Source: an uncultured Aquificales bacterium
GTDB lineage: Bacteria > Aquificota > Aquificia > Aquificales > Hydrogenothermaceae
Direction: 5' to 3'
NCBI GenBank assembly: GCA_964516095.1
Contig: CAZEYS010000001.1
Coordinates: 13,095 to 77,094 of the forward strand
Length of the DNA stretch: 64,000 nucleotides
This document shows positions 30,412 to 32,656 of this stretch, piece after piece; position 1 is the first letter of the stretch, and each line of letters starts with the position of its first letter. The translations under genes and the position numbers were made by a program. The notes under the pieces are model-generated. The model did no database searches. It saw only the letters and a list, made by a program, of their open reading frames with translations, and was not told the DNA's origin.

Positions 30412-31097
30412 AATTTGAAAAATTTATATACAAACAAAAAATAAAAGACTTACCTAAAGACCTGCTACCAAGAGAAAAAGCTTTAAAGTATGGAATAGAT
30501 TCATTATCAGAAGGGGAACTTCTCGCAATAGCTATTGGGTCTGGAACAAAAGGTCTGAATGTTATTGGCATTGCAGACCTGATTATTAAGAAATATGGCA
30601 TAGAAAATCTAAAAAATATTACTTTAGATGAACTGAAAAAAATAAAAGGAATAGGAGAAGCTAAAGCTTTACAGATAATATCTATAGTCGAACTTGCAAA
30701 AAGGATAGCAGAATATGACGAAAAGTTAGAAATATCTTCCCCAAAAGATGTCTATAATCTTGTGAAAGATTTAAGAAACGAAAAGCAAGAAAAGTTAGTG
30801 GTTTTATATACCAATACATTAAATCAGCTTTTAGGAAAAGAAACTATTGCAATTGGATCATTGAATGTCATAAATGTAAAACCCCGAGATATATTTACAT
30901 ATGGATTAAAATTAAACGCTTATGGAATAATTCTTGTTCATAATCATCCTGAGGGATATCCAGACCCAAGTAAAGAAGATATAGAATTTACAGAACTGGT
31001 TAAGGAACTATCTCTAAAACTTGGATTTGAACTTTTAGACCATATTATAATTTCAAAGAAAGGCTATTTTAGTTTCGCAGAAAAGGAGTTAGTTTAA
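30408..31097 (+). CDS. radC: RadC family protein (HhH + JAB)
   Basis: [20 protein letters not shown]. Confidence 0.9.
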
Positions 31098-31861
31098 TGA
31101 AAAAATATAAAGCTTTTTTAGTAAACGACGATGGTTACCTGTCTGAAGGATTAAATGCAATAAGAAAAAAACTCTTAGAGGAAGGATTTGATGTTATAAC
31201 TGTTGCACCTGATAGAAATATGTCAGGTTCATCCCACTCCCTTACATTTACAAGACCGCTAAAAATAGAAAAGTATAAAGATAATTTTTACTATGTTGTA
31301 GATGGAACACCGGCAGATTGTGTTCATTTAGGATATTACGTAATACTAAAAGAAGAAAAACCAGATATACTTGTGTCTGGCATCAATACAGGACCCAATT
31401 TAGGCAACGATATTTTTTATTCAGGAACAGTTGGAGCAGCCAGAGAAGGAACAAACTTTGGCATACCTTCGATAGCTCTATCTCCAGCATCATCTAAAAA
31501 TGTAGATTTTGATTTTATAGCTGAAAAATCCATGAAAATAATATATCAAGTGCTTCATAAAGGTCTTCCAAACGGAACATTCTTAAATATCAATTTTCCT
31601 GTTGGAAAGAATATCAAAGGCTATATGTTAACTAAACAAGGAAGAGGAGCCTATAAAGAAGAAATCAAAAAATATATATCTCCATCAAAAGAAATATACT
31701 ACTGGATAGGTGGTGAAGAAACTCTTACAGAAGAATGTGAGAAAGGAACAGACTATACAGCTGTAAAGGAAGGTTATGTGTCTATAACTCCAATAAAACT
31801 TGACCTTACTGATTACCATTCTATTCAGATTTTAGACAAGAACAATTTCCTTGCATTTTAG
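31097..31861 (+). CDS. surE: 5'/3'-nucleotidase SurE
   Basis: [37 protein letters not shown]. Confidence 0.96.
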
Positions 31862-31911
31862 GAATAAGTAACTGCCTAATCCTTTCTTTTTTAGAAGAGA
31901 TATACAGGCAG

Positions 31912-31940
31912 TTGATGTTTTTTAAATTCTTACGTATATT
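31912..31940 (+). promoter_or_regulatory. Sigma70-like promoter
   Basis: TTGATG - 17 nt - TATATT. Confidence 0.6.
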
Positions 31941-31949
31941 ATAAATATA

Positions 31950-32149
31950 AGCGATAACCAAGGTGAAAGTTTTCCTACGATAGAAGGTAGTAAGGGAGAA
32001 GGAAAACTCCCACCAAAAAACCGTAGGGTTGGAACGACCCGAGCTAAAGCCTGTGGAGAGGGTAAAACCTCTGTGAAGCAGGAAACTTCTCTGAAGTTGG
32101 CGAGCTTGCAAAGCGAGCAAGCTCCTCAATTTATTAGAGAGCAGTTCAC
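31950..32149 (+). mobile_element. IS200/IS605 (tnpB) right-end remnant / orphan omegaRNA-like scaffold
   Basis: GTAGGGTTGGAACGACCC...GCCTGTGGAG...GAAGCAGGAA...AGTTCAC; reads in one frame as a TnpB-type tail RVGTTRAKACGE..SVKQE..EQFT*; several GC-rich hairpins; no tnpA or tnpB body. Confidence 0.75.
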
Positions 32150-32197
32150 CTAATATTTACTCATATTTTTAGAAAATCGATAAAATGGAGGGTTATC

Positions 32198-32656
32198 ATG
32201 GATAAGGAAAAATTAGAAAAGTTTAGGCAACTTCTTCTACAAAAAAAACAAGAAATATTAAGTAGAGTTTTAGAGCAAGAAGATATAATAAGAAAATTTC
32301 AGGAAGAAAACCTTGAAATTCCTCAAGAAAGAGATGATTATGCACGAACAGATTTTTATGAACTTGTTTTAGATGAACTTGAAGAAGTAGAAATTGAAAT
32401 CCTTAGAGAAATAGATAAAGCTCTGCAAAGAATAGCTGACGGAACATACGGATACTGTGAAGTTTGTGGTCAACCAATAGAAGAAAAAAGATTAGAGGCA
32501 ATTCCTTGGACAACTCTTTGTATTAAGCATGCTCAAGAAGCTGAAAAGTATAAAGTTACTCCAGATAGAATATACGAAGATTATCTTCGTGAAAGTTTAA
32601 TACCTTATGACGAAGAATTAGAAAAAGATGTAAAAGAAGAAGGTTTAGACAAATAA
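32198..32656 (+). CDS. DksA/TraR family protein
   Basis: Coiled coil, ALQRIADGTYGYCEVCG..I..KRLEAIPWTTLCIKH. Confidence 0.9.
   Translation: MDKEKLEKFRQLLLQKKQEILSRVLEQEDIIRKFQEENLEIPQERDDYARTDFYELVLDELEEVEIEILREIDKALQRIADGTYGYCEVCGQPIEEKRLEAIPWTTLCIKHAQEAEKYKVTPDRIYEDYLRESLIPYDEELEKDVKEEGLDK

Follow-up and report, generated by a model that had tools for sequence, protein, structure and literature searches.

A block of DNA between surE and a dksA-like gene in an Aquificales genome is very probably a protein-less, non-autonomous miniature IS200/IS605 element that carries an omegaRNA, would be moved in trans and has inserted where surE ends, directly 3′ of TTAGG. Protein-less IS200/IS605-type elements of this kind are known as palindrome-associated transposable elements (PATEs). 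Sequence comparisons of the 64-kb window, by which we mean the whole stretch of DNA that was analysed, demonstrated homology to the 3′ end of tnpB, the boundaries of the element, copies at several sites, absence from the orthologous site and compensatory changes in the predicted RNA structure.

Architecture of the element between surE and dksA

The block is bordered on its left by surE (31097-31861; Pfam SurE, E 3.7e-57) and on its right by a DksA/TraR zinc-finger gene (32198-32656; E 4.3e-13). An initial annotation of this DNA had singled it out as GC-rich, and we measured a GC content of 0.46-0.49 over 31950-32149 versus 0.26-0.33 in the flanks; the whole-genome value is 31.8%. All of the hairpins named in that annotation were present in their places, and the RNA fold of the block reaches −70.6 kcal/mol (z = −4.0). 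Rfam contained no family matching at the gathering score, and permissive E-values yielded only chance-level matches (E 0.2 or worse).

The block had also been read as a TnpB C-terminal tail, and this reading was upheld. Its tail frame, RRVGTTRAKACGEGKTSVKQE...APQFIREQFT*, agrees with the full TnpB C-termini of same-genus genomes (for example, ...RVGTTRAKACEAGSVGG..AVKQEARCFNSE*), and neither a start codon nor a tnpA or tnpB body was found in 32012-32149 or in the element to which it belongs. A small protein encoded in the TnpB-tail frame was ruled out, as the frame has no start codon and frames are not kept among the copies. Substitutions fall at all codon positions, and stops and indels break the frames; given these indels, the mini-element is not coding. 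The mechanical list of open reading frames includes a minus-strand ORF of 102 aa antisense to the element (window 31821-32129). Since the antisense ORFs of the other copies lie in different frames, we consider it spurious and not suitable for annotation.

The scaffold forms the right two-thirds of a 287-nt tnpB-less IS200/IS605 mini-element (31863-32149), the features of which are collected in Table 1. The initial annotation had overlooked the left end (31863-31911), two further copies, and the fact that the promoter belongs to the repeated element and not to host sequence. Subterminal imperfect palindromes are present at both ends of the element, and terminal inverted repeats are absent. In the left-end palindrome, the outer stem CTGCCT/AGGCAG is preserved in all copies, G053c keeping the outer stem only, and the inner stem covaries (TCTTC/GAAGA versus TCCTC/GAGGA). 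At the other end, the AGTTCAC already noted in the initial annotation proved to be the terminus of nearly all family members, with sequences diverging right after it. GUGAA (32073-32077), part of the invariant CUGUGAAGCAGGAA segment, and the likewise invariant 3′-terminal UUCAC (32145-32149) are complementary. This pairing could form a pseudoknot beside the guide, or could serve as a DNA 'guide' for recognition of the right cleavage site by TnpA.

Table 1 Features of the mini-element in the window
Feature	Position	Strand	Remark
Whole tnpB-less IS200/IS605 mini-element (PATE-like), 287 nt	31863..32149	+	Multiple copies; absence in relatives
Left-flank target / TAM-like motif TTAGG	31858..31862	+	Overlaps the surE stop codon TAG (31859-31861)
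Left-end imperfect palindrome, outer stem CTGCCT/AGGCAG around inner stem	31872..31911	+	Conserved, covarying
Sigma-70-like promoter TTGATG-17-TATATT, reading into the element	31912..31940	+	Position conserved among copies; predicted
Conserved leader, 64 nt, two hairpins	31951..32014	+	Near-invariant in 8 aligned copies
Leader hairpins	31972-31978/31987-31993 and 31994-31998/32007-32011	+	
omegaRNA scaffold (former tnpB 3′ end plus right end)	32012..32149	+	Model R1 match
Scaffold helices	32026-32031/32035-32040, CCTG/CAGG, 32057-32061/32068-32072, 32084-32089/32093-32098, 32102-32109/32117-32124	+	
Right end: subterminal hairpin 32121-32142, terminus AGTTCAC 32143-32149	32121..32149	+	Hairpin covaries
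Predicted guide (host flank directly 3′ of the right end)	32150..32169	+	Position only

Homology and compensatory changes in the omegaRNA scaffold

We built a covariance model, R1, from an alignment (A2) of the final 150-230 nt of nine tnpB-linked elements, one from each of nine other genomes, and excluded mini-elements from the model. In the 64-kb window, R1 matched 32012-32149 and nothing else (61.2 bits, E 4.4e-16); the whole genome had three matches. On this homology, the interval is a TnpB omegaRNA scaffold, which bears out the assignment made in the initial annotation. In full-length elements, the TnpB of G006, a genome of the same genus, comprises 417 aa and ends in ...RVGTTRAKACEAGSVGGTGDNSQSTRHPAVKQEARCFNSE, and that of G015 ends in ...RVGTTQAEACGAGSVGG..TAVKQEAPQFIKE; both are followed by the right end AGTTCAC.

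The initial annotation had looked to covariation among relatives, and such covariation was found. In 14 tnpB-less copies aligned to R1, 93.6% of cells were paired (standard pairs), a value biased towards the model because the alignment was fitted to R1; sliding the 3′ partners of the same alignment by 1-3 columns left 38-49% paired. Changes on both sides were seen in 16 of the 43 pairs. This set includes one 5′-truncated copy at a contig end and copies of an independent family from genome G039. As TnpA also uses the terminal hairpin as a substrate, only the internal helices argue for RNA function. Among these is the hairpin whose counterpart in full elements codes for GRVGTT; it reads GGGTTG/CGACCC in the window copy, GGGTAG/CTACCC where tnpB is linked, and CCGCAG/CTGCGG in G016. 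Full elements also have a long stem, coding for ...AGSVGGMG..QSTRHPA..., which the window lineage has shortened to AGAGG/CCTCT, and in the G039 copies that we read the internal stem is cut to a comparable short hairpin. Judging from these alignments, the RNA helices are maintained by compensatory changes in the tnpB-less copies. A long-range helix suggested by single-sequence folding, GGUGAAA/UUCACC, was unsupported, its 5′ strand varying among copies with no compensation.

These changes bear on the possibility that the element is an inert, decaying remnant of a deletion, immobile and untranscribed, with a functionless RNA whose structure reflects recent descent and the former DNA hairpins of TnpA. 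We regard this as quite improbable. Compensatory changes occur in internal helices 2 and 4, distant from the termini that TnpA needs, and G016 has swapped the entire GGGTTG/CGACCC stem. The copies themselves, described below, provide evidence on both sides.

Copies, insertion sites and the putative partner TnpB

The population contains three copies of the element at different sites, each with its own flank and all sharing the frame TTAGG/.../AGTTCAC(C). Copy 2 lies between trpB and rplU (C25:6221-6476; about 95% identity), and copy 3 has its left end at the extreme end of contig C1; the two are 93-96% identical to the window element. The similarity of copy 2 extends from AATAAGTAACTGCC (window 31863), ahead of the promoter, as far as AGTTCAC(C), and this copy lacks ~36-40 nt carrying the AACTTC/GAAGTT and GAGCTTGC/GCAAGCTC hairpins. 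Copy 3 was completed by two metagenome contigs (L073 and L070) that are 99.9% identical to the assembly where they overlap it; it is a mini-element with its own right flank and without the −35 hexamer. The stand-alone omegaRNA of the initial annotation therefore holds in part: the scaffold has no tnpB gene and would need an external TnpB, but it is not an orphan, as it lies in a three-copy mini-element.

In five same-genus genomes (G002-G006), surE and dksA are adjacent, separated by a spacer of ~55-80 nt with no element. By this comparison, the element is an insertion at surE-dksA in the window genome; the exact empty site was not found in the metagenome contigs. Its absence from the locus in these five genomes also counts against the domesticated regulatory RNA that the initial annotation had put forward as an alternative.

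Relatives of the element are present in the family in at least three further genomes, as well as in one metagenome contig: the same architecture recurs at unrelated sites in G016, in G050, four times in G053 and on that contig. The G016 copy, from a different genus, lies between mutS and clpB with 82% identity, and was the only one recovered when 185,579 species genomes were scanned for the pattern. In metagenome contig Ga0256834_1026380 (L072), a related mini-element sits exactly between a pair of tRNA genes; immediately before it is TTTAGG, at the 3′ end of the first gene. Nine independent insertions are each preceded by TTAGG, TTAGA, TTAAG or TTAAC and have unrelated right flanks, and no target-site duplication was found at the right flank among the insertions examined. 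IS200/IS605 elements insert beside a short fixed target without duplication. G039, which belongs to another family of the same order, has eight matches to the scaffold; three of its loci (L029, L037 and L039) represent an independent tnpB-less mini-element family inserted after CTTTAAC. The G039 copies that we read run from a left-end hairpin through TTGACA-17-TATAAT, at the position equivalent to the promoter in the window, to an omegaRNA with a shortened internal stem.

Several of these observations favour the inert remnant: each of the three copies in the window genome carries private deletions or point changes, copy 2 has a weakened −10 hexamer, and copy 3 has lost its −35 hexamer. The loss of two hairpins in copy 2 and of the −35 in copy 3 suggests relaxed constraint or early decay. 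Against the remnant, however, the element is 82-86% identical across genera versus 72-77% for the adjoining surE, and the combination of promoter and omegaRNA arose in a second lineage, that of G039.

The lack of an intact tnpA or tnpB in the assembly also fits an inert remnant. Searches of the 107 contigs with PF07282, PF01797 and NF040570, and by tblastn with same-genus TnpB, detected no complete tnpB or tnpA, and returned only contig-edge fragments and one decayed copy, an internally deleted tnpB at C7:17751-17978. A sub-threshold PF01797 match on C19 was spurious. The genome search called for by the initial annotation yielded two further copies of the element, with the matching tnpB found only as contig-end fragments. 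The start of contig C46 carries a related left end, what is left of a deleted tnpA (its last few codons) and 22 codons of a tnpB with 86% identity to the G006 TnpB; the end of C62 carries the final 31 tnpB codons together with the right end, where R1 scored 105.9 bits. Two other tnpB families are cut at the starts of C8 and C62. Three tnpB families are each truncated at a contig edge (C46, C62 and C8), and IS elements seem chiefly responsible for the breaks in this assembly. As the shortest contig in the assembly is 1,508 nt, a collapsed repeat contig of ~1.2 kb would presumably have been dropped.

The putative partner TnpB of the mini-element is represented in the genome by these contig-edge fragments only. 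Its 417-aa homologue in G006 (locus L017) retains the RuvC motifs GIDVG, VVESL and DRDEN, so this tnpB family looks nuclease-competent. Upstream of that full tnpB, the Y1 tnpA has an in-frame stop (G006 L017:1-390; …KKVL*EIAEEKG…); together with the tnpA remnant on C46, this makes autonomous copies look scarce in the genus.

Promoter, leader and guide of the predicted RNA

A promoter scan returned four promoter-like sites versus 2.0 ± 1.4 in shuffles; a hexamer match alone therefore means little, and the support for the promoter is its conservation. The TTGATG-17-TATATT named in the initial annotation is indeed present as a predicted promoter, and in six of the eight aligned copies a −35 TTGAT(G/A) directly follows the left-end hairpin and is separated by a 17-nt spacer from TAT(A/C)TT. 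The conserved leader starts about 8-10 nt past the −10 hexamer. One G053 copy has the same leader on a different left end, and its promoter region resembles that upstream of the G015 tnpB. Taken with the G039 copies, these sequences indicate that a predicted promoter feeding an omegaRNA is a recurrent design.

No part of the element is more conserved than the 64-nt leader, which is almost unchanged among mini-elements of several genomes and genera, has been seen with two left-end types, and is present in tnpB-less copies only. Derivation of the leader from tnpB coding sequence was ruled out, the best local alignment score equalling that of shuffled sequence. In full elements the 5′ stems of the scaffold fall within the tnpB reading frame, and the leader may take their place. 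One candidate interpretation drawn from its conservation, though on balance an unlikely one, is that the leader (31951-32014) gives a free-standing omegaRNA a 5′ domain not described before. Alternatively, the leader might give the RNA a TnpB-independent role in stability, processing or sRNA-like regulation.

No two copies share the sequence that comes after AGTTCAC, as expected if the guide is plain host flank; in the sub-lineage of the window element the terminus may be AGTTCACC, making the start of the guide uncertain by 1 nt. We searched the genome with both guide registers of the window copy and copy 2. Apart from the element's own flank, no 16-nt match had fewer than two mismatches, and of the near-matches listed none follows TTAGG or TTTAG. 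As no other genomic target was found, the natural target would be the joint of TTAGG and right flank left by excision. The expected target, by analogy with the standard IS605 arrangement, is thus the element's own empty donor site, TTAGG + CTAATATTTACTCATA, and targeting of the donor joint fits the published retention model (PMC10055086). The trans-acting guide proposed in the initial annotation was not supported: the guide is local flank, with no other genomic match below two mismatches in 16 nt.

It is highly improbable that the block is a domesticated trans-acting guide or regulatory RNA (TnpB- or TldR-like, with its target elsewhere), or a mobile promoter for dksA, rplU or other genes. The promoter-like site, the conserved leader that lacks an explanation, and the placement of all three copies in the window genome, which face a gene 40-50 nt downstream without an intervening terminator, would suit either version; yet the element is multi-copy, has transposon ends, is not conserved at surE-dksA within the genus and carries a guide that differs per copy, while the shared orientation is expected from the insertion strand bias of IS200/IS605 and copies elsewhere face terminators or gene 3′ ends.

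For the mobile mini-element that we favour, we infer transcription, TnpB binding, cleavage and mobility as follows. A Y1 TnpA acting in trans would recognise the left- and right-end hairpins and move the element. The internal promoter would yield an RNA of ~200 nt, comprising the leader, the omegaRNA scaffold and a guide of ~16-20 nt of host flank, which would be loaded onto TnpB from a full-length sister element. The TnpB-RNA complex would cleave the element's empty donor joint (TTAGG + right flank), and recombination with the sister chromosome would then restore the element. Because there is no terminator between the element and dksA, read-through transcription into dksA is a likely side effect.

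Relation to known gene-less elements

Meers et al. described PATE-like elements of Geobacillus stearothermophilus that have no protein-coding genes and encode omegaRNAs (2023; PMC10055086). Like these (PMC10055086), the window element has no protein gene, has left and right hairpins of the IS200/IS605 type and carries an omegaRNA that would need the TnpB of another element; its guide would likewise be the flank, so that the predicted target is its own donor joint. Unlike the Geobacillus PATEs (PMC10055086), it resides in an Aquificales host and has a position-conserved promoter-like site fused directly to the predicted RNA, and its 64-nt leader is without counterpart in the tnpB-bearing relatives examined.

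According to the summary in PMC10691335 of Altae-Tran et al. (2021), stand-alone mobilised omegaRNAs exist and work in trans; the same source describes TnpB as particularly common in Aquificae. The window element resembles the stand-alone OMEGA omegaRNAs, as presented there, in having no effector and no transposase. In the OMEGA case, by the account in PMC10691335, the genomes also hold effector-bearing loci and function in trans has been shown, whereas here the matching effector consists of contig-edge fragments and any activity in trans is a prediction.

The full-length IS605/IS1341-type tnpB element at G006 L017 combines a tnpA remnant with the 417-aa TnpB. It shares with the mini-element the last ~140 nt, including the GTAGGG-hairpin, AAGCCTGTGGAG, CTGTGAAGCAGGAA, the terminal hairpin and AGTTCAC. 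By comparison, the mini-element is without the entire tnpB body, has the long internal stem reduced to AGAGG/CCTCT, and carries the non-coding leader in place of the upstream coding part. The guide RNAs of TldR, a nuclease-dead TnpB (Wiegand et al., PMC10705468), are likewise of the TnpB type, but TldR systems are immobile, locus-conserved and aimed at a conserved promoter target (PMC10705468), and none of these properties was found for the window element.

Gene-less, omegaRNA-carrying elements of IS200/IS605 have thus already been published (PMC10055086, PMC10691335), and the leader is the sole unexplained part. The element leaves the understanding of TnpB/omegaRNA systems unchanged, and provides a well-delimited Aquificales example of the known gene-less, omegaRNA-only IS200/IS605 class. 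For annotation, it means that the block is neither a pseudogene nor a new small RNA, and that its promoter may read into dksA. It is also a case of natural minimisation: the shortened stem that encodes the C-terminus in full elements, together with the hairpin losses of copy 2, suggests that parts of the scaffold are dispensable to a thermophilic TnpB. Were the leader truly a new 5′ domain, in either of the roles considered above, these elements would represent an independently evolving guide-RNA gene and not a deletion remnant.
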